From positions 2,367 through 66,366 of the forward strand of contig JBFMHI010000003.1 in assembly GCA_040753085.1 (NCBI GenBank): a DNA stretch of 64,000 nucleotides, given 5' to 3'. The position numbers were made by a program, and so were the translations under genes. The notes beneath the pieces were generated by a model, which was not told the origin of the DNA, did not search any database, and was given only the letters and a program-made list of their open reading frames with translations. The DNA comes from a bacterium (GTDB lineage: Bacteria > UBA9089 > JASEGY01). Shown piece after piece: positions 1 through 20,065 of this stretch (the stretch's first letter is position 1; the number at the start of each line of letters is the position of its first letter).

Positions 1-3000
1 ACGGTGCCGCTGGGGTTAGCCCCATCAAGAACTTTAAACCTGATCCTGGCAATGGGATAATCAGAGTATGTTCTGCCTATGGGGACACCATAGGTGGGCA
101 TTCCACCAGAACTTTTATCTTCCTCTTGAACCACGGAGATAGAGACCTTCTGGGCCTCTTCATCAACCACCCAGTGAAAGATGGGATGGAATACCGTGGT
201 ATCTCCTGACGCATTAACGGTGGGTGAATCAAGCAGATCGCCCAGTTCCACCGAGACCACATCTAAGATGCTCGACTGGGTATAATCGACGTCAAAGGCA
301 ATACCATAAAGAATCTGGGTATCAGCCGCATCAACTACTTCGGGAGTAGGGATGCCGGCCATGCCATCTAAGTAGACATAGAAATCGGCATAGCCACCTG
401 GGGTGGTAGTGATGGATTGACAGGATCTTACATCAGCCAGATCACCGGGCACCACATCAGACAGAAAAAGGGTTCCGCTATCATTGATAGCCCCCGTATC
501 TATCACCGTAACCTGAATGGTATCCAGCCGGCTGAGATTGATGCCGTCATAAACCTGGAGCCCGAAGACATAATCTCCCGTATCCTGGTTGGTAGCAGAG
601 GCGTCGGTAGTCGGAGCCATAAAGCGGAGCTTCTGGGAATAGGTGTCAGAGGTGCCTTCGGCCGGGCTGTAGTCTTCGGCTGCCTGGGCCAGGGTATCTA
701 AGATATAGCCATTACCACTGTTAGCGGTTGACGGCTGGCTGACTATACTCCAGCGATAGGAGAGTCGATCGGAGTTGGGATCGTTAGAGCCGGCCCCATC
801 GAGGACCACATACTGGCCCATATAGACATATTTTATTTCCTGGGTCTTGTTGTCGTCTATGTCAGCCGTGGGCGGAGTATTGAAATTGGCCAGGCGATTA
901 GCTGTACCGCCGTTTCCAAGCCAGGCGGGCGTCCAACTGCCTGCCGTGCCGTTCCAATAGGCAATGTAGTCAGTGACCGTATCGCCGCGATCATAGAAGC
1001 CGGTGGTAGCTCCAGTCAGGCCGTTTTCAAAACCGTCGGCATTAGAGGGATCATAGGGGCCGTCTTTGCCATAGCCGGTGCCGGACTTGGAGATACCCCA
1101 CCAGTTATTCCTGGCCGAGATAACCGTGGTTTGAGTCGGGTCCTCTTTTTCCATGCCGTAATCACAATTGTCCCAGATAGCACACTGGCTCACGGACACG
1201 GTGGCCGCTTCATAGCCGGCGCCAATAAAGACACCGGTGTTATTCCGGGTGATGTAGCTGTCTGTAACGGTGACGGTAGCGTCAGCCGCGGCAATATTTA
1301 TACCGTTATCAGCATATTTGATGGTGGCATCGGGAATATTTCCGGTAGAGCCGGCGGCAAACTTGATGCCTTTCCAGTCACCGCAGGCACCATCAGAGAA
1401 TCCGTTGGCATTGGAATCCCGGCCGTCGGTCACGTCGTCATTAAAGGAAGTAAACAGGACAGTATTCCCCAGCCAATCACTCTGGCTGACCACTTTGGCT
1501 CCGCCGGTGGTGAGGGTTCCGTTTACCACCAGGGTAAGGTCATCCCCGGCCTTGAGAACTTGACCCGGCCTAATAGTCAGAGTGATACCGGTGGCTATGG
1601 TCAGATCATCTTTATCAAAGATATAGGGAACCGCTGTTCCATCCATAACGGTATCTATGGTGATGGTCGAATTCAGGTGGACGCCGTCGTGGGTATTGGT
1701 CAAATACCCCTCGATCTCCGTAGACTTATTGTAGATATTATTCCTGATGGTCCACCCGCCGATACCGTCGTTTACGCTGTCGGCTCCCACAAATCCGGCC
1801 AGTTCAATCGGCCAGTATTCATCATAAATCCAGTTGCCCGTAATGGTTTCCCCTCTGGAGTTGGAATAGATACCGCCATTTATCCCGTATTCATAATAGT
1901 CTACCCCGCCGGAACCGTTTTCAAAAGCCGCCCCTGAGATATAGGCCTCATCCGGGAATCCGGCCTTGAAGGCGCGACTGTCGTCATCATCATCAGTGGT
2001 GGTAGCACTTCCAGTACAATCCCAGTAAAAACGGGTCAGGGCATCATGTTCGCTGTCTACGTAGACCAGGGGGCCTTGCTCAGTGTATACCGTGGCCCGA
2101 AGGGAATCAGGCACAGGGGCCGTGTGAGAATGGGCGGTGCTGGTGTAATTTCCGTTCTGATAAATAGTACATCCGGTAACCGTTAAGACAGTGGCGTTAC
2201 CATTCTGGGTGGAGTCACCCATGTTCTTGATACCCCAATCCCAGTTGCCGTAAATATTGCAGTCGGTTACATTGACTGTCCCGGCCGAGGTGGCGATTCT
2301 GACACCATCCAGCCGGTTATATCGGGCCGTGGAATCATCCAGGGTGAAGGTCCCGTCAGGGATAACTCCCTTTACCAGAATACCAGAGCCAAAGCTATAC
2401 TGCAAGGTAACATTATTGATGGTCGGCTCAGCCGAGTCAACCACGATCATACCGGTGGCCAACTCATCCAGGTTGCCGATCTCGGTTTCGCCAATGGCAT
2501 CGGCGTCGTCACCGTAAAGTCCACCATACTCGAGGGTGGCATAACGGATGGTTCCAGCCGAACCGGCTCCAAAGTAAATAGAGTTCCAGTCTCCCCGATC
2601 CGGGAGGGCCGTGCTCTGTCCCTTAGAGGTAAAGGTGATCTTCTTAGTAGCTGTTCCAGCCGCGGTCAGGGTTGCCCCAGACCTAACGGTAATGCCGAGC
2701 TGATAGGCCAATCTGGATTTATTATCCGGCACAAAGACCACTGTAACACCAGGCTTAATGGTCAGGGTATTACCTGAAGCAATCTCAACACCACCCTCAA
2801 CGATGTAAGGGCTGCCATTTTCTTCCCAGGTAGCAGGAACACTGTGCTCCAGGCTGCCGGCGCCAACTACTCCATCCTGCACGTGGTAGCTGGGGGCATT
2901 GGGATACTGGTCATCCCAGACCCGGTTAACATAGGTGCCGCTCGTGACCACAATGGCCTGTTTACCTGCGGTGTAACCCAGGCTGGGGTCTTCATCGGCC

Positions 3001-3374: not shown

Positions 3375-3797
3375 AAGAAATAAACCTCCTTTTTGATTTT
3401 TTCGTCTTGTCCTCATCTTTATCTTTACTGGATGGGGGCTGACGAAATTCCCCTCCTCCCTGTTTTTTGATGGCCTATTTTATTATGTTATAAATGCGGT
3501 GCAGATCGGCTGGATAATGAACTTAGTCGCCGGCTTTGAGACTGCGTATAACGTATAAGATAATAGACCACTGTGATTTTACAGTTAGCAGCAGTCGCCG
3601 CTGCTCTCTAAATTACCCCTCCTTTCTTGAAAAAATCAAATACCCCACTTTGGTCAGGAAGATAGAGAAGATAGAGTGGGTATTTACCCCTTGGCCTTTT
3701 AGTCGCTAGGTGCTTTGTTTATCCGGAGAGGGATGGCGGCCTGCCCTCTCCTGGTAAGGGAGCTTGGAATTCAACCTCCTCTAATACAATTATTAAG

Positions 3798-3962: not shown

Positions 3963-4276
3963 ATTGATAATTAAAAAGGCTTATCACCTTTCCAGGATAC
4001 ACCCTCCACCTGGTGATGATAAGCCTTCTTTTTTCTGTCTTAGGTGGAAGGCGCATTCTGGATTAAATGCGAAATTCAAGCTTGTTTTTATCTTGGAGAT
4101 GCAACTTCAAAGGTAATTATGGCGCAACTTCTACTGATGAACTATGTTACATAATGTATTACGGTACGGTGGTGATAAGGCACACCTTTCCACTTGTTCA
4201 CTACACTTTGTTTATCTTATCGACCATATATTAAATAAACTTTAGAGGTTTTTCGATCTGTGGGGTTAAACTTCTT

Positions 4277-4373
4277 GTAACCGTTCAGCCACCAAGGCAC
4301 GAAGACACGAAGGGGAAATTATTGATGAATTTTGTGTCTTCGTGTCTTTGTGGCTGAACACTTACAACTTCTT
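4277..4373. repeat. MITE-like hairpin element, family TTTGTAACCGTTCAGCCAC: arms gttcagccaccaaggcacgaagacacgaag / cttcgtgtctttgtggctgaac around a ~25-nt loop
   Basis: arms are reverse complements; related copies at 10116, 20277, 43586, 47829. Confidence 0.7.
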
Positions 4374-4417
4374 TTTTTGGGGGGGGGCGATAAAGAGGCT
4401 ATAATGCTGGGGAAGAA

Positions 4418-4486
4418 AGAAACCAGGTTTCTTGAAGAAACCTGGTTTCTGTTTAACACCACCTCCGGCAGGTTTCAAACCTGCCG
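4418..4486. repeat. perfect 13-bp-stem palindrome gaaaccaggtttc-ttgaa-gaaacctggtttc followed by second hairpin ccggcaggtttcaaacctgccg; identical first palindrome recurs at 63901..63933
   Basis: exact sequence identity of 33 nt at two loci 59 kb apart; no clear U-tract so not called a terminator. Confidence 0.7.
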
Positions 4487-4517
4487 AAGGTTTAGAAGTC
4501 TCATACAGGATAGCCGC

Positions 4518-7500
4518 TTACTTCAATACGACCATCCTCCGGGTCGAAGTCACATCTCCGGCTATTAACTGGTAGAGATAAACTCCGGAGGCCACTTCAT
4601 GGCCATTGGAGTCTTTTCCATCCCAGTAAGCCGCCCGGCTCTTGCTGGTGTAGGTCCCGGCCTCAAGTTTGCCCAGGTCAAGGGTCCTGACCAATTCGCC
4701 GGAAAGGGTATAAATCTTGATGGTTACATTGGTCTCTGCCAGGAGGGCGAAAGGTATCCAGACCTCAGGATTAAGCGGGTTAGGATAGCTCTGCCTCAGC
4801 GTAGTCTTGAGCGGAACCGTGGCGGCCAGTCCCAGGTTAATGGCTGTCTCTAAGAGGGACTTCATCTCTAAGACCTTCGTGGTCTGGGGGCCGGCCTCCA
4901 GGGCAGCCAATACGGCCTTGTAGCCTTCCAGATAGAGGGAATGATCCACGCCGACCAGGCCAGCCATTGCCGGGGCAGGATAGACCCCATCGATGTGGGT
5001 ATGGGTTTTGCCCCAGTTGAGACCAACGATGAGGACATCGGCTGCCTCAACCTTACCGTTGCCATCAGCATCAGCATAAGTGGCGCTTCTGGCGGCAGTG
5101 CCGGCCTCTCCCCACCAGATTACCCGGCCGAGCTTGGCCTGGTCTTCCCAGTCAATCTTAATGGGATAGCGGGCTGGGCCGCTTGTCCCCCAGTATTGAC
5201 CGATAGGCAGGATATCGGCCGCATCAACATCGCCGTCATTGTCTGTATCACCCGGCCAGAGCGATTCAACCTCGGCCGAACAGAAATTGCCCTGAAGCTC
5301 GACCGTATCAGAGCCTGCATTGCCGGCTACATCGGTCAGGAAGGTATAAAATTTATCAGGCTTGGCATAATTCATTACAATAGTGTCGCCTACCGTCACC
5401 TCGGTAGTGGCCTCATCGATCCAGATCTTCAGGACCGCATCACCAATCCATTCGGTCTCGACCTGGCCCCAATTATGTCTGACCCCAAAGGCCGGAGTAT
5501 TATGATCAAATACGGCCAGGGCCGTCTCGATATTGATATTGGTTATGCTGGGGGAATATGTCCCAATTTCCTTCAGATTGAGCATTGGTTCGTTGAAACG
5601 GATGAGCACGTAGTCCTGTTTGCCGGCGCCTTTATCTTCGCCCCGGCTGCCGTATCCGGTGATCTGACTGGCATCTGGATCCTCGGCGGGGCTTCTAAGT
5701 AGACAACTGTTTGATCCATCGTAGGCCACGGCTTCAATAATATAAGGCGGCAGGCAGTCATACTGACCAAAGGAGCCGGTGATCTGCCGGGGGACACAGA
5801 AGGCCAGGGAATCACCCATTGAACTGACAAAGCCTTGAGTTATGGTCTGATCAGCCGGCCGTGCCCAATCACCGACCCTGGGGATATCATTCTGAGGGTG
5901 GCCGGAAAAGACCGCCACGAATTCGGTGTTAGATAGCCAATAACCGGTATCAATGGTTTCCCAGGGGTGAGTTGTGCCGTTTCCATCTTTATCGGTGTTA
6001 AGCGGGAGGCTGGCATTTAGAGCCGCGGTGAGGGTAGCGCTCGTCCAGGTAAGATCAGCCATGCCAGAGATACGGCTGTCCATAGCGGTGTTAAAGGTAA
6101 TCTTCACTGAATCACCGCTCTGCTGTCCGTCGCAATTATCCTGATCAGGCGTGGCCACAATGCTCGTGAGGCAGGGGATGGGTCTCAACCTGATCTCGCC
6201 TGCTGGCGAGTTAGGATCAAAACCAATAGGGGTATTAGTCTCGGTATATCTGGTAATGGCCGGTTTAGTCCCGGCAGGTTTAGGCCCATCAGAGAGACTA
6301 CAACTGATGTTACTGAAGGTCAGCCGGCTGACCACCACCCCGCTTGGCTTGGCGCCTTCCAGGACCTTAAACCTGACCCTGGCTATGGGATAATCAGCGT
6401 AGGTTCTACCTGTCGGGACGCCATACACATAGAGGCCATTGGCGCTTCTATCTGCCTCTTGAGTCACCGAGATAGAAACCTTCTGGGACTTTTCATCCAC
6501 CACCCAGTGAAGGATGGGGTGGATTATGCCGACCGCGGTAGGTGAATCGAGCAGATCGCCCAATTCCACCGAGACCACATCCACGAGGCTGGACTGGGTA
6601 TAATCGATGTCAAAGGCAATACCAAAAAGGATTTCAGTGTCAGCGGCCTCAACTATCGCGGGGGTATCACCGCTTTCGAGGCCGTCTAAGTAGACATAGA
6701 AGTCAGCATAACCACCCGGGGTGGTGGTGATGACCTGGTTGGTTCTGGCGTCAGCCACCCGATTGCTGGGCACATCATCAGACAGATAAAGGGTCCCCCA
6801 CGTGTTGATCGAGCCGGTATCTTGGAGGACAACCTGAATGGTGTCCATCCGGCTGATATTGATGCCGTCATAGACCTGCAGGCCAAAGGTATAAGTTCCA
6901 ATATCAGAGGCGGCGGTTGGGGCGATAAAGCGCAGCTTCTGGGAGTAAGCATCCGAGGTCCCCTCAGGACAGCAATAATCCTCGGCTGCCTGGGTTAAGG
7001 CGTCTAAGGCATAACAGCTTCCAAAGTTAGCTGCAGCCGGCTGGCTGATCAGGCTCCAGCGATAGCAGAGTCGATCAGAGTTGGGGTCGCTGGAACCGGC
7101 GCCGTCGAGGACCACATATTGTCCCAGATAAACATATTTTATTTCCTGAGTCTTGTTGTCGTCTATGTCAGCCGTGGGCGGGGTGTTAATATTGGCCAGG
7201 GCATTAGCTGTGCCGCCGTTTCCAAGCCAGGCGGGAGTCCAATTGCCAGCCGTGCCGCCCACGTTCCAGTAGGCGATGTAGTCACTGACTGTATCGCCGC
7301 GATCATAAAAGCCGGTAGTCGCTCCGGTTTTACCGTTTTCAAAACCGTCGGCATTAGAGGGATCATAGGGGCCGTCTTTGCCATAGCCGGTGCCGGACTT
7401 GGAGACACCCCACCAGTTATCCCTGGCTGGAATAACCGTGGTTTCAGTGGGGTCATCTTTTTCCATGCCGTAATCACAATTGTCCCAGATGGCACACTGG

Positions 7501-9674: not shown

Positions 9675-9810
9675 TTAAAAACCTCCTTGTTTGATTTTTC
9701 GTAACTATTCTTGCCGAATCCTCCCCTTCCCTTCCTGTTGGGGGAGATCATATCCAGTAATCGTTACGGCGGTATCATCTGCCTCATCTCTCTGGCCTCC
9801 TTTCTCTAAG

Positions 9811-10035: not shown

Positions 10036-10115
10036 TCTCTGAGAAATAACTGCCATAGGGTATCAGGTAATGGGTGATCACCGATTACCGATTACCTGAG
10101 TAGTTACTTCAAAAC

Positions 10116-10296
10116 GTAACCGTTCAGCCACAAAGCCACTAAGGCACGAAGAGAATAATGAAATAGCCCACGGATGACACAGATTTTGGCGAATTCTCAC
10201 GGATTTTTTCTAATAAATTTTTATCCGTGTCAATCCGTTTCATCCGTGCAATCCGTATGCTATTATTTGTAATCTTTGTGCCTTAGTAGCTGAACG
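10116..10296. repeat. MITE-like element of the GTAACCGTTCAGCCAC family whose arms (gttcagccacaaagccactaaggcacgaag / ctttgtgccttagtagctgaac) bracket an array of four ATCCGT direct repeats spaced 10-11 bp (ttATCCGTgtcaATCCGTttcATCCGTgcaATCCGTatgc); right arm ends 2 nt before the stop codon of the 3255-aa gene
   Basis: read directly. Confidence 0.65.
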
Positions 10297-10297
10297 C

Positions 10298-13200
10298 TTA
10301 CTTCAAAACTATCATCTTCCTGGCGCCGGTGAAAGACCCGGCTTGGAGCTGGTAAAAATAGATGCCACTGGACACCTCTTCTCCGCTCTCATCTCGGCCA
10401 TCCCAGTAAGCCGCCCGATCCCGGCTTAGATAGCTGCCGGGCGGCAACTTGCCGGCATTGATGGCCTTGACCAATTGACCGGCTAAATTGTAAATGAATA
10501 TAGTTGTTTCAGCCTCCTCAGCCAGCCGAAATGGTATCCAGACCTCCGGATTAAAAGGATTAGGATAATTTTGGAGGAGCTGGCTCCTGGCCGGAACCTG
10601 ATTGGCCAGGGCCAGTTGGATATATTCGGCCAGGACCTCTGTCAGCTCGGTATAAGGCGTATCTTTAAGGACTTCATACATCGCCCGCAGAGGTTCAAGG
10701 TCCAATGGCTGAATGCTCACTTCTGACTGCTGACCCCTGATTTCTGACATCTGACTGCCGGCTTTTGTCTGCTGAGTCTTGTGCCAATTCATCCCAATAG
10801 GCAATATGTCTCTGGCATCAACTATCCCATCGCCATTAGCATCAGCATAAGCGGCCAGGGTAACTTTCCAGGAGGCGGCCGGTTGGGGAGTCCAATTGGA
10901 GGAAGCCGTCTCTCTGGGCGGCCCCTGAGTTTTCCAATACAGGCCAATAGGCAGCACATCCCTGGCATCGACCAGACGGTCATTATTGGTATCTCCCGGC
11001 CAGACCAGAACCTGGGAGACACTGCCTTCCTTGATGATAATCTCACTGCTGGTCGGGAGCAAGGAAATAGACCTATCCAAAGAATCCCTGGCTATTATAT
11101 TTGAGAACACCAGGGTTATTCTTGTCCCGGACGCCAGCCCTTCGGCTATTCTGAAGATCACTTTGGCTATTGATTGGCCTGGTTCGAAGCCGGATACCCC
11201 TTTTGAATGGAGGCCCTTTTTTCTGGAAAGACCTATTTCTATCCGGCCTTGACCCTTTTCAGACTCAAAGAAGACCAGTTTCCCAGGATCAATATCGAGA
11301 AATGGACCGGGACTAACTTCCAATACTTCAACGGCCTCAGAAGGAAAGGCAGAGATTTCAAACACCAGGCCAAAAAGGTCGGATACGGGATGTTGTCTAT
11401 CCCCAACTTCGACTTCCACCTCAAACTCTTCCCGGCTCACCTTGGTGTAAGTTGGTTGATCCCACCTCAATTCCACTTGTGACGAGACTAACGCCTTTAC
11501 TTTAACCGTGGAGGGGGCGGAGAAATATCCAGCGGCATTGGCCACTACTAACTGGAAGATATATTCCCCTGGCTCTTGAGGGGTAAATTTAGGTTGAACC
11601 ACGTTCTCCAGAATGATCCTCTCTGGTCCGGCTGCCTGGGTCCAGAAGTAACTAAGCTGTTCCCCCTCAGGGTCGTAACTGGCTCCGGCATCAAGGATGA
11701 CTAAGGTCTTGACCCCGGTAGTAATGTCTGGTCCGGCTTCGGCAATAGGACTATGCAGGTCTTTGGCCCAGGGGGCATAATCCACGAAATCGCTTACCCT
11801 GTCTCCTGTTCCGGCCGGATTATAAAGCGGTCTGACCGTCGAATCATCTTTAGGTCCTGTTCCAGCGCCCCAATAGTTGCTTTCAGCCTCGATAGTGTAG
11901 GACTCATCCTGATTGAGAAGGCCGAACTCAAGGTTGTCGGTAATTTCACACCCCTTAAGGCGAAGTATCTTTTCCCTGGCTCCAGGATAAGACCGGGGGA
12001 AATCTCTAAAAAGGAGACCAATCCGGTTATTGGTTATCCTGGCCCGGTCAATTTGGATAGAAGCCCCCTTTATTCCTTCTATCCCGATAGTATTTTCCAA
12101 GATATGACAATCCCGGATAATCGGATCCCTCAAGGTGGCCGTAACACCTGCCGCCGCGTATCGAATCCGGCAGTAGCTCAACTCGAGGTCCTCTGGCGGG
12201 GACGTAACTTGGACCGCCACTACATTCTTGCCCTCTCTCAGGTAAGAACCAAGCTGATAGGTTTCTCCTGGATTAAAGGTTATTAGGGAGTCCTCATTTT
12301 TAGCTATTAATTGTCCATTGACGTAGACTTCATAATCGGTCACCGCCGAGATATGCAAGGGGGCCGTGATTTGCCGCGAGATAAGTTTATCTTCACTATT
12401 TCTGAGGGGGGGCGGATCAATAAAGATCTCCTGGCGATAATACCTCTCTCCCCCCGCCTCTATGGCAGGTTTCAGCCAATGGGCTTCTGTTTCAGGGAGC
12501 CAGTCCTTTGGGTCTCTGGGTTGGTCACCGCGGTCAACGGCGGCAGTTTTCCACCCGGAATCATCAAAGTCAACCTGCATCCAATCTGACGGGGCTGCCT
12601 CGCCTTCTAATCTTTTCCAGGAGGCATCGGTGATTACACTCATTTCTCGGTAAAGATGGTAGGTCTCCTCCTTACCCTCACAGCATTCTCCTTCAGACTT
12701 CAATCCCCTGACTGTGAAAGATTCCTGAATAGGCAAGTCTACCAGAAGGGACTGCTTAATTTCCAACTCCACAAAGTGAAGGCCGCTCCAATCACCGGCC
12801 CGGGGGGTAGTGGCCTCACTATCCCCGTTGCTATCTCCACCAAATTCATCATCCTTGAAAGAGGTGAAGGTAATGAGCCTATCGGCTGTTCCGTTGGCCT
12901 TGAGCCTTCCATTGATAGTCAAGGCCCCGGCGCTTTTAAGGATCACCCCAGGGCTGATCCTCCAGGTAGAATCCTCGCCCACCTTCAAGCCGTCCGCCAG
13001 ATAAAAAGGCGCCCCATCCTCTTCCCAGATTACCTCTTCCTTCCCGGTAATATCGCCGCAGATCTTGATGGCATTGTATTGGTTGCCGAATATCTCGTTG
13101 TCCGTAATCAGATAGGCCTTGTTGGCGGTAATGCCGATGGCATAGTTGCGGTTATGGTTAATCAGGTTGTTTCTGATAATAGGCTCGGCTTCCTCCCCAC

Positions 13201-16200
13201 AGAAGGTGGCGATGGTGCCGGCTATATAGCCGGTCAGATCATCGGTGTAGGTATAATCATCGTCTGGTGAGTAGGAATCATTGTAAGTCAGATGGTTCCA
13301 TTCAATCAGGGGATCAGAGTCCTCTCTCACGGCCACCGCCCGATAGGCGTTGTAAGCGATCTTGTTGTTGGTGATGGTCGGGGAGGCATTGTGCAGCTCA
13401 ATCCCGTCCTTAGAATAGAGGATAATCGCCCGGTTGATGATGGAGTCATCTAAGGATGAATCCCAAAAGAGGATTCCCTGCCAATCACCGTTATCCGCTG
13501 TTCGGCCGTGTGATGCCCCATCACAATTAATATCTCCGCCAAATTCATCATCAAAGCAGGAGGTAAAAACGAGGTAGTTGGCAGTCCAATCATCCGGCTG
13601 GACCGATTTCGGAGGGTCAATAATATAGAAGGCGTGGAGGCTACCCTCTGGGTCAGCATCAGCTATCAGCCTTCCTCTGACCTCCAGACCGGCCCCTTCG
13701 GACTTGGGTTTGGTTTCATCGAACTTGACCACCACGCCCGGGTTGACCGTCAAGGTAACGCCTTCTTCCACGATAACCCGCTGGACAAAATAGGGCGCTA
13801 AGTCATTATAGTTCCAACTGGTGCCGGCCACGGTGTAGTTGGCATACCAGACCGTATCCGTGCAGTGGTTAGCCGCATCGATCCAGACGGCATTATGGTT
13901 ATTGCCCTTGATCAGGTTGTCCTTGATGATGTAACCGCCCACACAGTCGCCCAGTCGGTGCTGTCCTTTAATGACGGCCCAACCGTCATTGTCCTGGATG
14001 AGGTTGTCGGTAATGGTCTCAGAGGCGGTGGCGGTGGAGTAGATACCGCCGCCGGCTCCGTCTTCATCGGTTGGTCTGAGTCCATTGTCGTGAATATTAC
14101 AGTCAGTCACCACCAGGTCAGTGTGGTTACCCACGTAGTAGTTACCCTCATTAAGGATGCCCCAGCGACCGTTTCTGGCCAATTCACAGTTATCAATAGT
14201 GATGGTGCCGTCATCTATCTTGAAGTTGGCTCCATCTAACCGGTTGTCGCTGAATTCAGAATTGGTGAGGGTCGGGTTCATCGGGAGGGTCGGATCATTA
14301 GTCATATCGGCTGTCCTGGGACCGCTGTAGAGTATCCCGGCGGCGGCCGAATTAGTGCTCCTGATATGATCGATGACCACATCAGTGCCATAGACCTCGA
14401 TATTGCCCCGGTGATACTCACCTAAGCTGTCATCATACCAGCCACCGTAGCTGATATCCGCATAACTGATAATCGAATCTTGAGCGGTCTCTTCAAATTT
14501 GATCCTGGTCCAATCCCCGGCCTTAGGGTGATATACCTGGCCGTCCGGTTGGGTCCAGGTGCTGAAGGTGACACGCCGTTCCGGGATGGTGCCTTCCGCA
14601 GACGGCGCCCTCCCGGCCGCCTTTAAGGTTCCCTGAACGATCAGCTCAGGCGGCTGATTAGGATTGGTCAGGGTGGAGAATGGCCTGAAGAGGACCTCAA
14701 CGCCCGGCTCAATGGTCAGGCTCACGCCGGGCCAAACCTTAACCAGGTCTTCGATAATGTAAGGAGAACCGGATATGTCCCAGACCACATCATCTACATA
14801 TATCCGGTCATCATAAGGCGGTTGATCGTCCATGAGGCGGTTGACATAGGTGGCTGACTTTCTAACCGACCAGGCGCTGGTGAATTCGGACCGGTTGCCG
14901 CCGCAGTCAACAGCCGCTACTCGCCAGTAGTAGATTTCACCCATAATCATCGCCTGCTCATAGGGCAGGGCATACTTTACCGTGGAAGAGCCTTGACCTT
15001 CGACCTCGACGTTTACCTCAGGTGATGAGAAATCGGAATCCCGGTCCATCTGGAAGAGATAGTGAGTCGCATCCGAGACGGTTGTCCACTCAAAGGTGGG
15101 GGTCGAATCAGTCACCGGGGTTGGGGCCTGATCATTGACTACCTGACTCACCCTGGCCGGGTAGATCAGGGTCGGCCTAGCCGGCGACTGGAGGTCAACC
15201 TCAAATCTGTTGGGGGTGCTCCATTTGGTGGAATTAGTCGCCCGATCAAAGGCCTTGACCCGCCAGTAGTAGACACCTTCAGGAAAGGCGTTCAAACCAG
15301 CCAGAGCCCCGTCAAACCGGCCGCCGAACTGGCCATTGTAGGCCTGATAGTCGGCTTCGGTGATGTTGAATCGGCCGTCGCCATCCTGATCAATCGGCCA
15401 GCGGGTGTTGGCGATATTCTGAAGGCTGGGAACCCCGTTGGTCCTAAATTCCAAGAGCGGCTCAAAGGGCAGCTCGCTGATGTTTATCTCTAACGGATCA
15501 GAGAACTCGATATTGTCGCTTACCTGTAAGGTGTAAACGATGGGAGCCGAAGGATCACCCATCGGATCCCAGTCAAAGATGGGGGTGGTATCATTGACGC
15601 ACTGACCGTCCGCCGGCGTAACCAGTCTTACTGAGCTGCAACTCACATAACAATTGTTAATATCAGTATCGATGTGGATTTCCCAGACATCGGCAGACCA
15701 ACCGGTCTGGCCGCAACGGTTACCGGCCTCATCCACCCCGCCGACTCTCCAATAGTAGGTGCCGTCTCTCAGGGCCACGGTCGGCACATAGCTGGAGACC
15801 TTGGTCCATTCATTTACCTCGGGTGAGGAGAAGTCGATGTTGTTGTCAACCTGAATATTATAGGTGATCTTGTCTATGCTCGGCCCGGTGCCCTCATCCT
15901 CGTAGGCTGACCCCTCATCCGACCAGTCAAAGAAGGGGGTGTCATCATTGGTATAGGTGCCGTCATCCGGTGAAACCAGGCTCGGACATGAATCTACGTG
16001 CGGATCGATCCTGATCGCCCGGATCTCTGACCAGGTGGACTCATTCTCGGCACAGTCAATGGCCGTCACCCGCCAGTAGAAGGTCCGGCCGGCCCCGATA
16101 CTGGGCAGAATAGTCGGCGTAAAGGTCATCCGGCCGTCTAAGACCTGGAACATCTCCGGATGATACACATCGTGAGGGTCTCTGGGATCATTGGAATAAT

Positions 16201-19200
16201 CCACCGTCTGATTAAAGACATCTCCGCTATTATCGCCATTGTTCAGGTTGTCATCCACCTCGATCTGGATAAGATAGTAAACTGTATCGCAGTAATCTGA
16301 GTTAATGAAGTTGCCTGACAGCTCTGAGGAGTGGTAGGTCTTGGAATCAACCACCCGCTCCCAGGTCATCGTGGGGGTAATATCGTTGGTGGTATGCCAA
16401 TCTGCCGGTGAGATCAGATTAGGGGCGTCTGGGGCCGTGGTGTCAATGGTGAATCTCCGGTAGGGACTGGTATGGCTCCACTCGGAGATGTTGCCGGCAC
16501 AGTCCATCGCCCGGACTCGCCAATAATAGGTCCCCTCCGGCAGGACCGGCGTGACCGTCATTTGACTGCCGTGGATATAACCGGTCGTGCTGCCGTCTAA
16601 GGGGTTATCTCCGCCTACCAATTGCGACTCAAAGTCGTTTATGTCCAGAATAGGTGAAGAGAAATCAGCGTCATCATCGATCTGGAGCTGATACCTCAGG
16701 TCGTAAGCCTCCGGCTCATCCCAGTCTAAGGTTGGGGTGTCGTCATTGAAGATGATGGCGTCATCCGGTGAGGAATAGTTGGGCATATCCGGCGGCGTCA
16801 GGTCCACGGTAAAGGCCATCATATTCCCGCCGTTGCTTCTGTTGCCCGCCTCGTCCACGGCCATGACCCGCCAGTAGTAGTGCCCTTCCTTCAGCTCATA
16901 AGCCGGCGGCAGGGTATACTCGGACCCGGTCAGACCGGAGACAGAGACGTCCGGGTCGATAAAATCCGGATCCCCGGCATCTTTGGCCTTGACCAGCTCG
17001 AAGATGTAAGACAGCGTCCGTTGCTGGGTGTCGGTATCCTCCCAATAGAAGGTCGGCCTGGTTCGGCTGAAGGGCCGGCTGAGCGCTCCGCCGGTGCCTG
17101 AAAAGACGCTGGGTGAGATATCCGGCTCCACCGCATATCCCTCATCCTGGTAACTGACACAGCCAAAAGGCGCCAGGAGGGTTGGATCAGACGGTTCTCC
17201 CATCTCAGGATTGAAGCTCCAGACCTGGCTGGCGCACTGGTTGCCGGCCTTATCGTAGGCCGTTACCCGCCAGTAATAGATTACTCGGTTATCCATGGCC
17301 TCGGCATTAGCTGTTTGATAGCTGGAGACCGGTGGTGTTCCGGTGTTCCACTGATCAATAACCAGGGGAGCCGTAAAGCTTGATTCGGTATCAATCTGAA
17401 TATTGTAGCTGATAATATTGGGGTCGGTCACATCGGCCCAATCAAATAACGGGGTGGTATCGGCCAGGGCGATCCCGTGGGAGGGAAAAAGCAACTCCGG
17501 TGTACAGGGTGGGATCGTATCGATGACAAAGACCTGGGCCTTCCAGGGTGAGTAGTTGCCCGCACAGTCTCTGGCCCTCACTCGCCAGATATAGCTGCCA
17601 TCTGGCAGGGCCGCCGTATAAGTCGGCTGGGATAGCTCGGTAACGTCAACTACGAGTAAGACCCAGCCTGTCTCCGTTGGCGCAATCTGTAGGTCATAGC
17701 GAAGCTCCTCGCCGTGGCTGATCACCCAGGCTACAGTTTCAGGTGGATTGCCGTCCTCGGTACTGGTGAGATATGTAGCCGCCGTAGCACTCCAATCCAC
17801 CCAGGCCGTCTGAGAAAGGGTATCTCCTTCATTCCAGATAAAGATTGGGGTCGGATCGGGCTCATAGTCGCCATCATCCAGGGTATCAGACAGGTCCTGG
17901 GGAGTGGTCGGCGCTTTGGTGTCCACGATAAAGGCAAAGGAGTCAGACCAGGTATTACCGGCATCATCGGTTACCTGCAGCTCCCACCAATAAAAATCTC
18001 CATCGGTGTCCGAATCCTCCAGACAGACAGTGGTGATAAAGCTATGCGCCGTCCCACCGCCGCCGACAGCCACCCACCCATTAGCATCACTATTAGGCAG
18101 ATTAACCACGTTGGCGCTATCATAGACGCCCAGATTTCTATTGACGATTCGAACTTGATAGGTCACGGCTGGCGGTTCATCCAGACCGTTGGAACTGGCG
18201 CCGTAAGGCGGCAGGTCAATCCACTTTAAGATTGGGGTGCAGTCATTGATATGGAACTGCTGGCTGCAGAACTCTGAGTCAGCCCCGGGATAGATCAGTC
18301 TGGCCACCGGTGCCGTGGTATCCACCGTAAAGTAGCAGACTTCACTCCAGTTGCCTACTACCTCGTTACAGGTAGGATCCAGGGCCCTTACCCGCCAGAA
18401 CCAGATGCCGTCCGGCAAGGTGGCCCCGGTCCAGGCCGTCGTCCGGTCGGAAAGCCAAGCTACCTGATTGCCGTTGGCATCCTGACCATTGCTGAAATTA
18501 AAGCTGCTAACTTCTGATGGCGCCGCCGCATTAACATTACCATTTCTGATCCAGAGGTCATACTCCACATCTTCTGAATCAGCAATCGAGAAAGATCCGT
18601 CATGATCGAGCTGGACTTCATACCACAGGTCGCTGGGCTGACTCCCTGAAGGATCAGCCACCTCGGTCCAGGTGAAGGTAGGCGCACCCGTATTGATCCG
18701 GTCTCCTCCATTAGTGCCGGTGGTGGTGCAGGCACCTGGTGACTGGACGATAGGCACCTCAGGTGGCACACAGTCTTCCAGGTCTATCACCACTTTCCAC
18801 TTGACACTCCAGTTAGTGGAGTCTGCCCAGGAGTCATCGTTAACGGACATAATCCGCCACCAGTAGGTCCCTTCCGGGAGGCGACCGTCGTTAAGGGTGC
18901 TGGAGACGTCGGGGCTCAGGACATCGTAGACTAAGGTCGGATAGGTATCCCCAATAGTAAAACACGTCCTGGTGCCGGGTATCCGGGCCTGAATGAGGAG
19001 ATTGGTGGAATCCCACGTTCCGGTATCTACCCCCCACCCCTCTCCATCATTTTGATCTTCAAAGTTATCATTGTTGAACCAGGCAAACTGGAAGATGTAG
19101 CTATCTCCGGCTTCACTTCCACCCGTGTTGCCAACGCCTCCAGTGATGCCATCAAGGACGCTCTCGTAAGGAATCCCTGGCCTGGGGTCCCAGCAGAAGG

Positions 19201-20065
19201 TAGGCTGCGGTGAATTAGTAGTGATATTATCGGGGAGAGACCTCAAGTCCACCGGCCTAATAGTAAAGGACCGGGTGGCGCTCCAGTTGGTGTAGGGGGT
19301 TCCAGCATCATAAGCCATAACCCGCCAGTAGTAGGTTCCGTTCTTGAGGTTGAAGGAGGCGGTGTCGATGGCGTAGTAGCCCTGGGTTGGATCAAGCCCC
19401 AAGATGGCCTGGCTGTCTGGGGTGTTAACCTTCTTCGGCCATACTTCCGGGCTGCCATCCGGATTAAATTCTATCCGGTCCGCAAAGCCCGGATTTTTAT
19501 CAATCCAGATAGCCCACGTATCGACCACATCAGTATCGCCGGCGATGTTTTCATTGGCTCCAAAGACCAGGTCCGGGGTGGCGCTGTAGACATCAAACCC
19601 GTTTAAGGGATAATGGAGGCTGGGTGGAACGATGTCGAACCAGCCCAGATTGCTTTTAGTGTCCTCATTGGCTATGACCTGCCAGTAGTAGCGAGTGATT
19701 TCGCCTTCGGGCACACAGGTCAGGGCCAGGGTGTCAGGGAGGCTGAAGGAATGTGTTCCGGTAGTTCCAAAACCACCGGCCGGCACGGCCAAACCATAAT
19801 CACCGGCGGCCGTGAAATAGAGGTTGACTTCAAATTCTAAGGGATAGAGGAAGTCGCTTCGTTCATCGACCTGGACAATGAATTGGGCGGCGGCCTCAGG
19901 CCCGTTCCAGTACCAGGTCAAATTTGGGGTGGCGTCCCAGGTGTCAATCCCGTTAATGGGACTGGTCACAGACAGGGCATGCCCCCTGCCCACCATAGCT
20001 GTTACCAACACAGCCAGGGCGGCCAATACTACCCTAATTATTTTTCCGACATCCGGTGTCTTCAC
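10298..20065 (-). CDS. giant secreted surface protein (3255 aa): many FN3-like repeats (recurring GTYYWRVRA.D.AGN.S.WS motif), central PbH1 beta-helix repeats, two dockerin-like repeats, C-terminal T9SS sorting domain
   Basis: GTG start with GGAGG RBS 8 nt upstream; signal peptide MKTPDVGKIIRVVLAALAVLVTAMVG; dockerin-like VWPGDTNNDRLVDARDVLPIGLYW and YADANGDGIVDARDILPIGMNW; C-term LQNYPNPFNPEVWIPF...GIYFYQLQAGSFTGARKMIVLK (TIGR04183-like). Confidence 0.9.
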   Translation of the reverse strand: MKTPDVGKIIRVVLAALAVLVTAMVGRGHALSVTSPINGIDTWDATPNLTWYWNGPEAAAQFIVQVDERSDFLYPLEFEVNLYFTAAGDYGLAVPAGGFGTTGTHSFSLPDTLALTCVPEGEITRYYWQVIANEDTKSNLGWFDIVPPSLHYPLNGFDVYSATPDLVFGANENIAGDTDVVDTWAIWIDKNPGFADRIEFNPDGSPEVWPKKVNTPDSQAILGLDPTQGYYAIDTASFNLKNGTYYWRVMAYDAGTPYTNWSATRSFTIRPVDLRSLPDNITTNSPQPTFCWDPRPGIPYESVLDGITGGVGNTGGSEAGDSYIFQFAWFNNDNFEDQNDGEGWGVDTGTWDSTNLLIQARIPGTRTCFTIGDTYPTLVYDVLSPDVSSTLNDGRLPEGTYWWRIMSVNDDSWADSTNWSVKWKVVIDLEDCVPPEVPIVQSPGACTTTGTNGGDRINTGAPTFTWTEVADPSGSQPSDLWYEVQLDHDGSFSIADSEDVEYDLWIRNGNVNAAAPSEVSSFNFSNGQDANGNQVAWLSDRTTAWTGATLPDGIWFWRVRALDPTCNEVVGNWSEVCYFTVDTTAPVARLIYPGADSEFCSQQFHINDCTPILKWIDLPPYGASSNGLDEPPAVTYQVRIVNRNLGVYDSANVVNLPNSDANGWVAVGGGGTAHSFITTVCLEDSDTDGDFYWWELQVTDDAGNTWSDSFAFIVDTKAPTTPQDLSDTLDDGDYEPDPTPIFIWNEGDTLSQTAWVDWSATAATYLTSTEDGNPPETVAWVISHGEELRYDLQIAPTETGWVLLVVDVTELSQPTYTAALPDGSYIWRVRARDCAGNYSPWKAQVFVIDTIPPCTPELLFPSHGIALADTTPLFDWADVTDPNIISYNIQIDTESSFTAPLVIDQWNTGTPPVSSYQTANAEAMDNRVIYYWRVTAYDKAGNQCASQVWSFNPEMGEPSDPTLLAPFGCVSYQDEGYAVEPDISPSVFSGTGGALSRPFSRTRPTFYWEDTDTQQRTLSYIFELVKAKDAGDPDFIDPDVSVSGLTGSEYTLPPAYELKEGHYYWRVMAVDEAGNRSNGGNMMAFTVDLTPPDMPNYSSPDDAIIFNDDTPTLDWDEPEAYDLRYQLQIDDDADFSSPILDINDFESQLVGGDNPLDGSTTGYIHGSQMTVTPVLPEGTYYWRVRAMDCAGNISEWSHTSPYRRFTIDTTAPDAPNLISPADWHTTNDITPTMTWERVVDSKTYHSSELSGNFINSDYCDTVYYLIQIEVDDNLNNGDNSGDVFNQTVDYSNDPRDPHDVYHPEMFQVLDGRMTFTPTILPSIGAGRTFYWRVTAIDCAENESTWSEIRAIRIDPHVDSCPSLVSPDDGTYTNDDTPFFDWSDEGSAYEDEGTGPSIDKITYNIQVDNNIDFSSPEVNEWTKVSSYVPTVALRDGTYYWRVGGVDEAGNRCGQTGWSADVWEIHIDTDINNCYVSCSSVRLVTPADGQCVNDTTPIFDWDPMGDPSAPIVYTLQVSDNIEFSDPLEINISELPFEPLLEFRTNGVPSLQNIANTRWPIDQDGDGRFNITEADYQAYNGQFGGRFDGALAGLNAFPEGVYYWRVKAFDRATNSTKWSTPNRFEVDLQSPARPTLIYPARVSQVVNDQAPTPVTDSTPTFEWTTVSDATHYLFQMDRDSDFSSPEVNVEVEGQGSSTVKYALPYEQAMIMGEIYYWRVAAVDCGGNRSEFTSAWSVRKSATYVNRLMDDQPPYDDRIYVDDVVWDISGSPYIIEDLVKVWPGVSLTIEPGVEVLFRPFSTLTNPNQPPELIVQGTLKAAGRAPSAEGTIPERRVTFSTWTQPDGQVYHPKAGDWTRIKFEETAQDSIISYADISYGGWYDDSLGEYHRGNIEVYGTDVVIDHIRSTNSAAAGILYSGPRTADMTNDPTLPMNPTLTNSEFSDNRLDGANFKIDDGTITIDNCELARNGRWGILNEGNYYVGNHTDLVVTDCNIHDNGLRPTDEDGAGGGIYSTATASETITDNLIQDNDGWAVIKGQHRLGDCVGGYIIKDNLIKGNNHNAVWIDAANHCTDTVWYANYTVAGTSWNYNDLAPYFVQRVIVEEGVTLTVNPGVVVKFDETKPKSEGAGLEVRGRLIADADPEGSLHAFYIIDPPKSVQPDDWTANYLVFTSCFDDEFGGDINCDGASHGRTADNGDWQGILFWDSSLDDSIINRAIILYSKDGIELHNASPTITNNKIAYNAYRAVAVREDSDPLIEWNHLTYNDSYSPDDDYTYTDDLTGYIAGTIATFCGEEAEPIIRNNLINHNRNYAIGITANKAYLITDNEIFGNQYNAIKICGDITGKEEVIWEEDGAPFYLADGLKVGEDSTWRISPGVILKSAGALTINGRLKANGTADRLITFTSFKDDEFGGDSNGDSEATTPRAGDWSGLHFVELEIKQSLLVDLPIQESFTVRGLKSEGECCEGKEETYHLYREMSVITDASWKRLEGEAAPSDWMQVDFDDSGWKTAAVDRGDQPRDPKDWLPETEAHWLKPAIEAGGERYYRQEIFIDPPPLRNSEDKLISRQITAPLHISAVTDYEVYVNGQLIAKNEDSLITFNPGETYQLGSYLREGKNVVAVQVTSPPEDLELSYCRIRYAAAGVTATLRDPIIRDCHILENTIGIEGIKGASIQIDRARITNNRIGLLFRDFPRSYPGAREKILRLKGCEITDNLEFGLLNQDESYTIEAESNYWGAGTGPKDDSTVRPLYNPAGTGDRVSDFVDYAPWAKDLHSPIAEAGPDITTGVKTLVILDAGASYDPEGEQLSYFWTQAAGPERIILENVVQPKFTPQEPGEYIFQLVVANAAGYFSAPSTVKVKALVSSQVELRWDQPTYTKVSREEFEVEVEVGDRQHPVSDLFGLVFEISAFPSEAVEVLEVSPGPFLDIDPGKLVFFESEKGQGRIEIGLSRKKGLHSKGVSGFEPGQSIAKVIFRIAEGLASGTRITLVFSNIIARDSLDRSISLLPTSSEIIIKEGSVSQVLVWPGDTNNDRLVDARDVLPIGLYWKTQGPPRETASSNWTPQPAASWKVTLAAYADANGDGIVDARDILPIGMNWHKTQQTKAGSQMSEIRGQQSEVSIQPLDLEPLRAMYEVLKDTPYTELTEVLAEYIQLALANQVPARSQLLQNYPNPFNPEVWIPFRLAEEAETTIFIYNLAGQLVKAINAGKLPPGSYLSRDRAAYWDGRDESGEEVSSGIYFYQLQAGSFTGARKMIVLK

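Follow-up and report, generated by a model that had tools for sequence, protein, structure and literature searches.

Three adjacent genes for large secreted beta-helix proteins in which cohesin, dockerin and type IX-style sorting tail are combined

Several described systems resemble the locus reported here, which comprises the genes g1, g2 and g3. From Cloacimonadota MAGs, cellulosome-like dockerin/cohesin proteins that bear a T9SS C-terminal domain have been inferred (PMC8542988), and non-cellulosomal cohesin-dockerin pairs are known from archaea and ANME (PMC9012536). The cloacimonadotal Ca. Stygibacter (PMC8542988) is, like the bacterium studied here, uncultured and has signal-peptide dockerin proteins, a cohesin partner and a conserved C-terminal sorting domain, for which surface attachment has been proposed as the role; for both, everything has been inferred from sequence. 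However, Ca. Stygibacter has a 3,755-aa scaffoldin with many cohesins and CBMs, and its dockerins are found on GH18, GH57, S8 and C25 enzymes, whereas in every protein of the present locus a single cohesin and a single dockerin accompany the C-terminal domain in cis, a beta-helix that cannot be assigned serves as payload, and extra cohesins are located on small FN3 lipoproteins. With the clostridial and ruminococcal cellulosomes (type I-III) the locus shares the cohesin fold (TM up to 0.83; C. cellulolyticum, C. acetobutylicum and C. thermocellum) and the two-loop Ca-binding dockerin. The giant proteins, having both modules, are comparable to cellulosomal adaptor scaffoldins, and anchored single-cohesin proteins to anchoring scaffoldins. 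The identity, however, is 11-18%, and a multi-cohesin scaffoldin, an SLH or sortase anchor, CBM3 and CAZyme payloads are all missing from the present locus; its dockerins contain an insert of 30-39 aa, and anchoring would be by lipid (lipoprotein) and a T9SS-like C-terminal domain.

The archaeal proteins (the Archaeoglobus fulgidus cohesin 2xdh, which ranked 10 among the g3 cohesin fold matches, and those of ANME, PMC9012536) are alike in that single cohesins and dockerins occur on surface proteins unrelated to cellulose, with a proposed role in surface attachment or cell-cell contact, but they belong to another domain of life with another envelope, and no C-terminal sorting domain or beta-helix payload is described there. 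The beta-helix part of the locus has its counterpart in giant PbH1/CASH proteins (Pfam Beta_helix/NosD/Beta_helix_4) of uncultured prokaryotes and in T9SS-secreted beta-helix adhesins, which contain the same module of ~240 aa; the cap shared with the giant PbH1/CASH proteins is ...TLTI.PG..V.F....L.V.G.L.A.GT....I.FTS..DD..GGD.N.DG....GDW.GI.F. Typical relatives have 4-24 copies of the module in a protein of 1.1-7.8 kaa, whereas the g1/g2 subfamily has just two, together with the cohesin-dockerin cassette.

The window, i.e. the whole 64-kb stretch of DNA that was analysed, contains g1, g2 and g3 as three neighbouring intact ORFs arranged head to tail on the minus strand (Table 1), already annotated in GenBank in generic terms. 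Shine-Dalgarno sequences and signal peptides precede or begin the intact giant ORFs (in g2, GGAGG upstream of the signal peptide), and a chance origin is not possible for ORFs of 1718 and 3255 codons (g2 and g3); the dN/dS of 0.24 and the orthologs in a second MAG likewise speak for real genes. A preliminary description of this DNA, made from the letters, had placed three head-to-tail paralogs at exactly these coordinates and had estimated ~75% identity for the first two, which agrees with our alignment (850 of 1129 aa, 75%). Its estimate of roughly a third of the window is close to the measured 28.6%, but the total coding sequence is 18.3 kb rather than more than 20 kb. Pfam/NCBIfam, BLASTP and fold searches bore out that the products are giant paralogs, namely beta-helix proteins that are secreted or at the surface and bear a dockerin and a Por_Secre_tail. 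The proposed shared block architecture stands in part: signal peptide, beta-helix, dockerin and tail are present, but the dockerin and tail of g1 lie outside the window and were seen only in the database protein MEW5766143.1, FN3-like repeats are confined to g3, and the cohesin domain in each giant protein, like the adjacent cohesin lipoproteins, had been missed. The presence of a cohesin and a dockerin in each giant protein, plus the neighbouring cohesin lipoproteins, is the most informative feature of the locus. We concluded that g1, g2 and g3 encode large secreted beta-helix proteins and that each of these has its own cohesin and dockerin as well as a type IX-style sorting tail; what is new is these further members, both building blocks (the beta-helix module and the cohesin-dockerin-C-terminal domain cassette) being already common. 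In the g2-g1 spacer, promoter and terminator scans gave results no better than shuffles and Rfam gave no convincing match. As to a DGR or retroelement explanation, there are two Rfam group II intron matches, and no RT-sized ORF was noticed beside either.

Table 1. Positions of the genes and domains described in the text (window coordinates; a slash marks a cleavage site)
Feature	Position	Strand	Remarks
g1 (MEW5766143.1)	1..3374	-	N-terminal 1124/1733 aa in window; C-terminus beyond left window edge
g1 signal peptide and Ig-like domain	N-terminal of module 1	-	
g1 beta-helix module 1	~2115-2852	-	
g1 beta-helix module 2	~870-1691	-	
g1 PKD domain	between module 2 and cohesin-like domain	-	
g1 cohesin-like domain, start only	1 to ~491	-	
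g2 (MEW5766144.1)	4518..9674	-	1718 aa, complete
g2 signal peptide, MKETKKRWGSVLMALLPVFTLAIGTEAAEA/AI	9585..9674	-	read by eye
g2 beta-helix module 1 (aa ~175-420)	8415..9152	-	cap ITFTSKG..PDRGDWRSILF at aa 246, then PbH1 coils
g2 beta-helix module 2 (aa ~558-830)	7185..8003	-	cap VLFTSYQDDVTDGRDSNADG..GNWKGIVF at aa 635, PbH1 coils, NWWG end
g2 PKD-like domain (K319L-like)	6825..7172	-	25.6 bits, slightly under Pfam cut-off 27
g2 internal cohesin-like domain (aa ~960-1130)	6285..6797	-	predicted by homology to the g3 domain
g2 middle region (aa 1131-1470)	5265..6284	-	no recognised domain; most variable part among paralogs
g2 dockerin (aa 1472-1556)	5007..5261	-	Ca-binding loops DTDNDGDVDAAD and DADGNGKVEAAD, 39-aa insert between
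g2 C-terminal sorting-type domain, SYPNPLNPEVWIPF...VVLK	4521..4787	-	FlgD_ig 44.3 (cut-off 27), TIGR04183 28.5 bits (cut-off 23)
g3 (MEW5766145.1)	10298..20065	-	3255 aa, GTG start, complete
g3 array of 13 FN3-/Ig-like repeats, 108-160 aa	14876..19975	-	YYWRV..D.AGN motif in each
g3 three beta-helix modules (aa ~1735-2760)	11786..14863	-	caps at aa 1832, 2165, 2398
g3 GH2_N-like sugar-binding insert in module 3 (aa ~2527-2621)	12203-12487	-	Glyco_hydro_2_N 29.3 bits (cut-off 28)
g3 PKD domain	11498..11755	-	K319L-like_PKD 41.7 bits, PKD_4
g3 internal cohesin domain (predicted)	11030..11488	-	AF2 pLDDT 78-91
g3 dockerin (aa 3021-3096)	10778..11005	-	DTNNDRLVDARD and DANGDGIVDARD, 30-aa insert; second type, unlike g1/g2
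g3 conserved helical linker	10568-10777	-	precedes C-terminal sorting-type domain
g3 C-terminal sorting-type domain	10301..10567	-	TIGR04183 26.7 (cut-off 23), FlgD_ig 27.9 bits (cut-off 27); AF2 pLDDT 82-95
Lipoprotein 1 (MEW5766146.1), FN3 x4 and C-terminal cohesin	20533..22194	-	548 aa from ATG at 22179; lipobox FPSG/C
Lipoprotein 1 cohesin	~20536-20982	-	Pfam Cohesin 44.3 bits (cut-off 24.1)
Lipoprotein 2, one FN3 and cohesin	34755..35573	-	272 aa; lipobox LLTG/C; 14 kb away
Lipoprotein 2 cohesin	~34815-35150	-	Pfam Cohesin 37.7 bits (cut-off 24.1)

Pfam Beta_helix (PF13229, cut-off 25.9) matched g1, g2 and g3 with 52.1, 55.2 and 88.6 bits, respectively, the E-values in the giant proteins ranging from 7e-14 to 4e-25 (g3, 4.4e-25, with NosD in addition). 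The modules have the right-handed parallel beta-helix/pectin-lyase-like fold, and the AF2 model of the beta-helix module has a pLDDT of 80-98. Each module had been described as terminated by ITFTS..DD..GGD.N.DG..P..GDW.GI.F. In this strict form the motif has no match in g1-g3; in the relaxed form [ILV][TVL]F[TS][ST]...G[DN]W.[GSR][IL].F it is present twice in g1 and g2 and three times in g3. Since it is located at the start of each module, ahead of the Pfam-detected PbH1 coils, it is a cap and not a module terminator. The term beta-helix/FN3, applied to all three proteins, likewise fits g3 at most and not g1 and g2, in which no FN3-like repeat was found by Pfam or by motif scan. Of the 13 repeats in g3, 12 were found by motif scan and one by eye (YIWRV near aa 815); they match Big_13, Ig_Rha78A_N, SusE and the DUF4962 N-terminal region, not PF00041, and were also detected as DNA repeat family D8. 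With isolated g2 segments (N-terminal Ig-like, inter-module and 340-aa middle region) Pfam returned nothing.

The internal domain of the giant proteins is predicted to have a cohesin jelly-roll fold and to be homologous to bona fide cohesins. When the AF2 model of the g3 domain was compared with the PDB by Foldseek, the top 27 matches were all cohesins (E 9e-10, TM up to 0.83); the fold was modelled for g3 only, and the g2 domain is tied in through its homology to g3 (E 7e-7). A profile search of the PDB with the internal cohesin returned only cohesins, including the four best matches of g2 (best E 0.003). BLASTP connected the g3 domain with the Pfam cohesin of the neighbouring lipoprotein (E 8e-5), and P0005, an ortholog in a second MAG, has a weak precomputed PF00963 match. 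The isolated internal segments gave no Pfam match at E <= 1. Because hhalign connected the internal cohesins only weakly with those of the lipoproteins in a profile-profile comparison (probability 19%, E 0.0012), the assignment in the giant proteins rests on the fold search.

The cohesins of the two lipoproteins (PF00963) have profile matches to PDB cohesins. The gene of lipoprotein 1 is located immediately upstream of g3, and its product shows clear matches to fn3 and, four times, to Pur_ac_phosph_N; lipoprotein 2 is 33% identical to it (E 7e-25). The second MAG likewise has lipoprotein 1 (ortholog P0145), in a conserved archease-RtcB neighbourhood. Since a search with lipoprotein 1 found a single true ortholog, the remaining matches being FN3-only, the co-occurrence of lipoprotein and giant genes can be checked in one other MAG only.

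Two DxDxDG..D loops are present in the dockerins of g2, g3 and full-length g1. Pfam Dockerin_1 (PF00404, cut-off 22.9) scored 34.3 bits with the isolated g2 segment and 27.7 and 26.0 bits with the whole proteins. The inter-helix spacing, 39 aa in g1 and g2 and 30 aa in g3, departs from the canonical short linker, and the long insert is conserved across the wider cassette family. The helices are nearly invariant in g1, g2, P0003 and P0004 (one I/V difference, in g2), at an overall identity of 72-76%, and a second conserved type is formed by g3, P0005 and P0024; two dockerin types are conserved across two MAGs.

The sorting-type domain is C-terminal in g2, g3 and full-length g1. It is possible, though rather doubtful, that it is not a T9SS signal here but serves structure or attachment, or directs the proteins to another export route, in which case anchoring would be solely by dockerin and lipoprotein cohesin. 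TIGR04183 exceeds its curated cut-off in both g2 and g3, the domains partially match the C-terminal domains of PorU and PorZ, PorU is among the Foldseek fold matches, the position is strictly C-terminal with a conserved NPxNP...K-terminal pattern, and Zixibacteria and Marinimicrobia (FCB group) carry the same cassette, all of which argues for a T9SS signal. On the other side, FlgD_ig outscores Por_Secre_tail (PF18962), which stays below its gathering cut-off of 27 (22.6 bits in g2, 25.6 in g3), and FlgD is the sole PDB sequence match, full-length g2 and g3 giving marginal FlgD matches or none. No T9SS component (PorK/L/M/N, Sov/SprA, PorU/V) was recognised among the scanned ORFs of the 64-kb window (all but several smaller ones). 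The closest relatives of FtsZ among GTDB representatives are 47-64% identical (best 62-64%) and come from many phyla, leaning towards Terrabacteria and CPR and not the FCB group. Because no T9SS component was seen in 64 kb and FtsZ has no close relatives, the system may be absent. Moreover, the same cassette extends beyond Bacteroidota/FCB, the classical T9SS range, to MAGs assigned to Poribacteria, Desantisbacteria and even Lokiarchaeota. The T9SS has been described as limited to Bacteroidetes (PMC11611037).

As the best reading of the locus we propose, with moderate confidence, an assembly on the cell surface in which glycan-binding beta-helix proteins are joined by Ca-dependent cohesin-dockerin contacts. 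The three genes would be transcribed separately and their products exported by Sec to the cell surface. The working parts would be the pectin-lyase-like/CASH right-handed beta-helix modules, two each in g1 and g2 and three in g3, the latter probably sitting on a stalk of the 13 FN3-like domains and bearing a putative sugar-binding insert; they may bind, and possibly modify, glycans on particles, prey or host surfaces. All three proteins terminate in a common cassette of PKD, cohesin, dockerin, helical linker and a type-A T9SS-like sorting domain of ~90 aa. In the first step the C-terminal domain would direct outer-membrane passage and attachment, and in the second the Ca-binding dockerin of one molecule would plug into the cohesin of another, either the internal one of a paralog or that of an FN3-stalk lipoprotein (beside g3 or at 34.8 kb). 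Because the proteins would be attached by the C-terminal domain and joined through each other's cohesins, the outcome would be a tethered multivalent surface assembly, i.e. a non-cellulosomal, cellulosome-like coat or adhesin layer.

A degradative cellulosome-like complex, in which cohesin-dockerin contacts concentrate beta-helix lyases, hydrolases or epimerases on the surface and a glycan is depolymerised for uptake, seems unlikely to us. No catalytic family model (Pfam, NCBIfam; CAZy-type) matched the giant proteins, their beta-helix modules are 8-16% identical to every solved enzyme, and no solved relative was found by sequence in the PDB. The relatives carry 4-24 module copies per protein, which is unusual for catalytic beta-helices, and the window has no multi-cohesin scaffoldin or other dockerin-bearing enzyme. 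Nor is the locus a cellulosome sensu stricto: there is one cohesin per protein, the dockerins of the window are confined to the giant proteins, and no CAZyme domains were found. From the lack of a CAZy-type family, the tandem modules and the GH2_N-like insert in g3 we infer binding rather than catalysis; adhesins and surface layers typically show such tandem repetition.

The genes had also been regarded as near-repetitive coding sequence and hence a substrate for recombination and antigenic or adhesive variation. A contingency locus of this kind, its variants arising as near-repetitive paralogs recombine, would be consistent with the tandem, co-oriented arrangement of g1 and g2, with the mosaic nearest-neighbour pattern among g1, g2, P0003 and P0004, and with synonymous-site identity that is heterogeneous between g1 and g2 (0.40-0.89; at 4-fold sites 0.89 in codons 151-225 vs 0.66 overall). 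The longest conversion-like run, 20 matching polymorphic sites at codons 774-795, is significant (permutation P 0.0004), and the contigs of relatives end at gene ends, as expected of multi-copy genes. However, near-repetitive is not the right term for this DNA: g1 and g2 are 80% identical and match exactly over no more than 73 nt, g2 and g3 have no match >20 nt, and g3 has no usable DNA similarity to g1 or g2. The sole array that TRF detected in the three genes is a 50-nt one in g3 (10709-10758; period 14 nt, 3.6 copies, score 51, near the threshold), and no homopolymers, short tandem repeats, invertible elements or silent cassettes were found in or around g1-g3. Exchange between g1 and g2 is rare and old because dS is 0.62; dN/dS is 0.24 overall and 0.11-0.37 across all 100-codon windows, i.e. 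both genes are under purifying selection in every such window. The marks of contingency or antigenic variation (near-identical repeats, SSRs, invertible segments, silent cassettes, diversifying selection) are not found here, and the recombination signal is limited to one or two short historical g1/g2 conversion tracts. Since only such short, old tracts are detectable, there is little support for antigenic or adhesive variation, and a contingency locus is highly improbable. At the protein level, g3 is a distant paralog, 31-45% identical to g1/g2 in local stretches only; its beta-helix modules are homologous to those of g2 (31-33% identity), and its dockerin and C-terminal domain are 45% identical to those of g2 over 248 aa (E 5e-57). 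Rather than being a variation locus, the genes probably encode a coat or a set of adhesins that assembles itself on the cell surface and belongs to a widespread, uncharacterised kind.

The g1/g2 subfamily is rare, with four close members among 5.8 billion proteins. Orthologs or paralogs at 71-74% identity were found in GCA_030019105.1 and one Logan read set, and a scan of genome contigs with g2 gave no relative. The beta-helix module matches 55,787 protein clusters (representatives), and cohesin, dockerin and C-terminal domain occur together in many of >2,500 proteins, whose N-terminal payloads differ widely. At present, the locus is an ordinary instance of a giant surface protein class that is very common in MAGs. 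More speculatively, and with low confidence, the cis cassette of cohesin, long-insert dockerin, helical linker and sorting domain might be a device for self-assembly that is general, undescribed and attached to thousands of unrelated payloads in Poribacteria-, Zixibacteria-, Marinimicrobia- and Desantisbacteria-like lineages. After export, the dockerin would engage a cohesin on either the next molecule or an FN3-stalk lipoprotein, giving a programmable S-layer-like mesh on which payloads such as beta-helix lectins, proteases and LRR proteins are shown, with the wiring set by two orthogonal dockerin types (g1/g2 vs g3). If this is true in a lineage maybe outside the FCB group, a T9SS-independent use of the C-terminal domain is implied. 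A literature search on Poribacteria with dockerin/cohesin or with T9SS found nothing relevant.

If the wiring is real, the locus would be a compact, testable surface assembly in an uncultured deep-branching bacterium, 36 kb of which contain five cohesins and three dockerin-bearing proteins; very large glycan-binding proteins would be tethered and multimerised without a classical scaffoldin, and cohesin-dockerin biology would reach further than fibre degradation. Orthogonal protein-assembly parts could be obtained from the two conserved dockerin types and the candidate cohesins. In the related MAG, where contigs are short, g3-like genes are followed by unrelated genes and the tandem order g3-g2-g1 was not seen; tandem clusters of genes with the C-terminal domain occur elsewhere too, e.g. 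at L081.

As proposed in the preliminary description, three long ORFs, here g1, g2 and g3, lie head to tail; their coordinates matched exactly, and all three are intact and on the minus strand (see the table below). Their products, encoded on a 68.5-kb MAG contig, carry the same GenBank name, 'right-handed parallel beta-helix repeat-containing protein'. A GGAGG-type ribosome-binding site precedes each gene, and the spacers between each gene and its neighbour are 0.47-1.1 kb in length and contain hairpins; for these reasons we infer that the genes are transcribed as separate units. The g1 and g2 proteins share 75% identity across 1129 aligned residues, in agreement with the earlier value of about 75%. 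The suggested paralogy extends to g3 only distantly, with 45% identity across the final 248 aa (E 5e-57) and 31-33% in the beta-helix modules. The dockerin and tail attributed to each gene were found in g2, in g3 and in the full-length g1 protein (1733 aa), but this part of g1 is encoded beyond the window.

The domain order was determined from Pfam and NCBIfam, motif scans and two AlphaFold models. The g1 and g2 proteins consist of a signal peptide, an Ig-like domain without family assignment, a first beta-helix module, a spacer, a second module with an NWWG cap at its end, a PKD-like domain, a cohesin-like domain, about 340 aa without recognised domain, a dockerin, a conserved helical linker and a C-terminal domain of roughly 90 aa. 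In g3, the signal peptide is followed by 13 FN3-like repeats bearing the YYWRV motif (12 by motif scan and one by eye), and these by three beta-helix modules, the last of which holds a GH2_N-like sugar-binding insert; PKD, cohesin, dockerin, linker and C-terminal domain complete the protein. The motif previously quoted as closing each beta-helix module is present only in relaxed form (twice in g1, twice in g2 and three times in g3), and it is not a terminator, because it is located at the module start, ahead of the PbH1 coils. The original observation was essentially correct but imprecise, and its reading of giant surface beta-helix proteins was judged right.

The internal cohesin was absent from the preliminary description. 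Judged by structure model and profile, the domain that follows PKD and precedes the dockerin is a cohesin: in the AlphaFold model of the C-terminal part of g3 it has a pLDDT of 78-91, a Foldseek search of the PDB with this model gave cohesins for each of the best 27 matches (E 9e-10, TM up to 0.83), and a PDB search with a profile of the segments from g1, g2, g3 and P0005, an ortholog, returned cohesins only. The isolated giant-protein segments did not reach the Pfam cohesin HMM. Two lipoproteins also carry cohesins, that of MEW5766146 scoring 44.3 bits against a Pfam cut-off of 24.1, and the window holds five cohesins.

In the giant proteins, the dockerins exceed the Pfam cut-off and contain two canonical DxDxDG..D loops; their repeats are separated by an unusual insert of 30-39 aa. 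Among g1, g2 and their relatives P0003 and P0004, the dockerin helices are nearly invariant (one I/V difference, in g2), despite an overall identity of only 72-76%. A second conserved type is common to g3, P0005 and P0024. The two types point to two conserved binding specificities. No dockerins or sorting tails besides those of the giant proteins were found in the window.

We propose that the three products would be Sec-exported to the cell surface, where the beta-helix modules may bind glycans, binding being favoured over catalysis, and that the C-terminal domain would serve for passage across the outer membrane and attachment. The paralogs would then be linked, to one another and to the lipid-anchored FN3-stalk cohesins, by Ca-dependent cohesin-dockerin binding into a tethered multivalent assembly. 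The analysis establishes gene integrity, folds, selection, neighbourhood and dockerin conservation, while the route of export, the pairing of partners and the preference for binding over catalysis are inferred. The C-terminal domain scored under the cut-off of PF18962 and over those of TIGR04183 and FlgD_ig, and no T9SS gene was recognised among the ORFs scanned in the window. Comparable published cases are MAGs of Cloacimonadota, for which dockerin/cohesin proteins of a cellulosome-like kind and with a T9SS C-terminal domain have been predicted (PMC8542988), ANME archaea, with cohesin-dockerin proteins that are not cellulosomal (PMC9012536), and Omnitrophota, with giant proteins of dockerin type (10.1101/2023.11.21.568195). 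What is added here is the cis cohesin-dockerin-sorting cassette with adjacent cohesin lipoproteins, which yields a concrete, testable assembly model.

The two building blocks abound in metagenomic data, and generic annotations already existed for the giant genes. At E <= 1e-3, a profile of the beta-helix module matched 55,787 representative clusters, of which 7,721 remained at E <= 1e-30; a typical match is a giant protein of 1.1-7.8 kaa in which the module is repeated 4-24 times in tandem. The module is very common and mostly uncharacterised. The final 496 aa of g3 matched >2,500 proteins at E <= 1e-5, many of them uniting cohesin, dockerin and FlgD_ig/Por_Secre_tail, whose order and number vary. 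The payloads at their N-termini have no relation to one another (LRR, S8 and C1 peptidases, GDSL esterase, VWA, WD40, PKD and others), and their existing taxon labels include Poribacteria, Zixibacteria, Marinimicrobia, Desantisbacteria and 'bacterium'. The g1/g2 subfamily is rare: a set of 5.8 billion proteins contains just four close members. In a related MAG, GCA_030019105.1, the FN3-cohesin lipoprotein has an ortholog, and the archease-RtcB neighbourhood of its gene is the same. On the short contigs of this MAG, the g3-like genes have unrelated genes after them, so conservation of the tandem order is not demonstrated.

The giant genes had also been regarded as near-repetitive DNA and a substrate for recombination and antigenic or adhesive variation. 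This was not borne out: g1 and g2 are 80% identical in nucleotides with a longest exact match of 73 nt, g2 and g3 share none >20 nt, and TRF found no substantial repeat arrays within the three genes, only a borderline 50-nt tandem array in g3 (score 51). Between g1 and g2, dS is 0.62 and dN/dS is 0.24 overall (0.11-0.37 across all 100-codon windows). On the side of exchange, 4-fold-site identity varies from 0.40 to 0.89 along the pair, the closest sequence among g1, g2, P0003 and P0004 shifts along the alignment, and codons 774-795 hold 20 matching polymorphic sites in a run (P 0.0004, GENECONV-style permutation test). The footprint of past exchange is real but small, and the genes are old paralogs with occasional concerted evolution, not a contingency locus. 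The sole strong tandem DNA repeat near the locus (TRF) is the 282-nt FN3 unit of the MEW5766146 gene, which is a likelier candidate for repeat-number change than the giant genes.

Features of the window and their coordinates
Feature	Position	Strand	Remarks
g1 (MEW5766143)	3374..1	minus	truncated at left edge; N-terminal 1124 aa inside
g2 (MEW5766144)	9674..4518	minus	1718 aa, start ATG
g3 (MEW5766145)	20065..10298	minus	3255 aa, start GTG
FN3-cohesin lipoprotein MEW5766146	20533..22194		directly upstream of g3; lipobox, four FN3, C-terminal Pfam cohesin
FN3 repeats of MEW5766146 gene	21011-21761		282-nt unit, 2.7 copies, 81% matches
Second small lipoprotein	34755..35573		lipobox, one FN3 domain, Pfam cohesin (37.7 bits)
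Conserved non-coding element	3965-4250	minus	about 290 nt, between g2 and g1; also L085:6717-7000
MITE/REP-like hairpins	4277-4360, 10040-10160, 20293-20330, 32395-32557, 43590-43632, 47877-47919		
Perfect palindrome	4415-4451, 63900-63936		also L082, L083, L084, L085
PIN-domain gene	24562-24972		
Group II intron domain V/VI (Rfam)	25312-25388, 27295-27430	minus	58.8 and 41.4 bits
144-nt repeat	27471-27614, 46334-46477		
OLD/AriA/GajA-like AAA ATPase	32618-34270	minus	stand-alone; PADLOC NsnB/AriA, E 1e-27
7-nt-unit arrays	35795-36170, 34577-34650, 55347-55440		ATCGAGC and variants
43-nt inverted repeat	43590-47919		98% complementary, encloses 4.2 kb
dcw cluster	48023-60231		
RNase P RNA	60632-61143		512 nt vs 367-position model
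Rpn-family nuclease/transposase	62724-63836		

The conserved element in the g2-g1 spacer, found also on a relative's contig (L085), ends with a long nested hairpin and a U-tract. It has 76% column identity to DNA downstream of the lipoprotein ortholog in GCA_030019105.1 and a fold z-score of -2.05, and no Rfam family covers it. The element is a candidate for a small RNA or a leader. Many intergenic spacers, among them all three that flank the giant genes, hold hairpins of a MITE/REP-like family whose termini are GTAACCGTTCAGCCAC...GTGGCTGAACGGTTAC and whose short internal repeats are CACGAAG and CACGGAT. In both MAGs, several genes are followed by copies of the palindrome CAGAAACCAGGTTTCTTCAAGAAACCTGGTTTCT, which might be a terminator or mobile hairpin common to the two.

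Elsewhere, the two group II intron matches lie either side of rtcB, with no RT-sized ORF nearby. Between archease and rtcB the spacer measures about 1.3 kb here versus about 115 nt in the related MAG, which has no such matches; together with the 144-nt repeat, these are probably ORF-less intron-like insertions. The largest 7-nt array overlaps the 5' end of an ORF whose RuvC domain begins only at aa 106. Between the arms of the inverted repeat, the 44-46 kb stretch has 61% G+C versus about 48% nearby and encodes a 586-aa PLP-dependent decarboxylase; the segment may be horizontally acquired or mobile. The OLD/AriA/GajA-like ATPase is possibly a defence gene. The dcw cluster comprises mraZ, rsmH, two small ORFs, murE, mraY, ftsW, murC, murB, an ftsQ-like gene, ftsA and ftsZ (mraZ, ftsL and ftsQ assigned by position and size); ftsI, murF, murD and murG were not found in it. 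Against GTDB representatives, FtsZ reached no more than 62-64% identity, and its best matches are spread over phyla.
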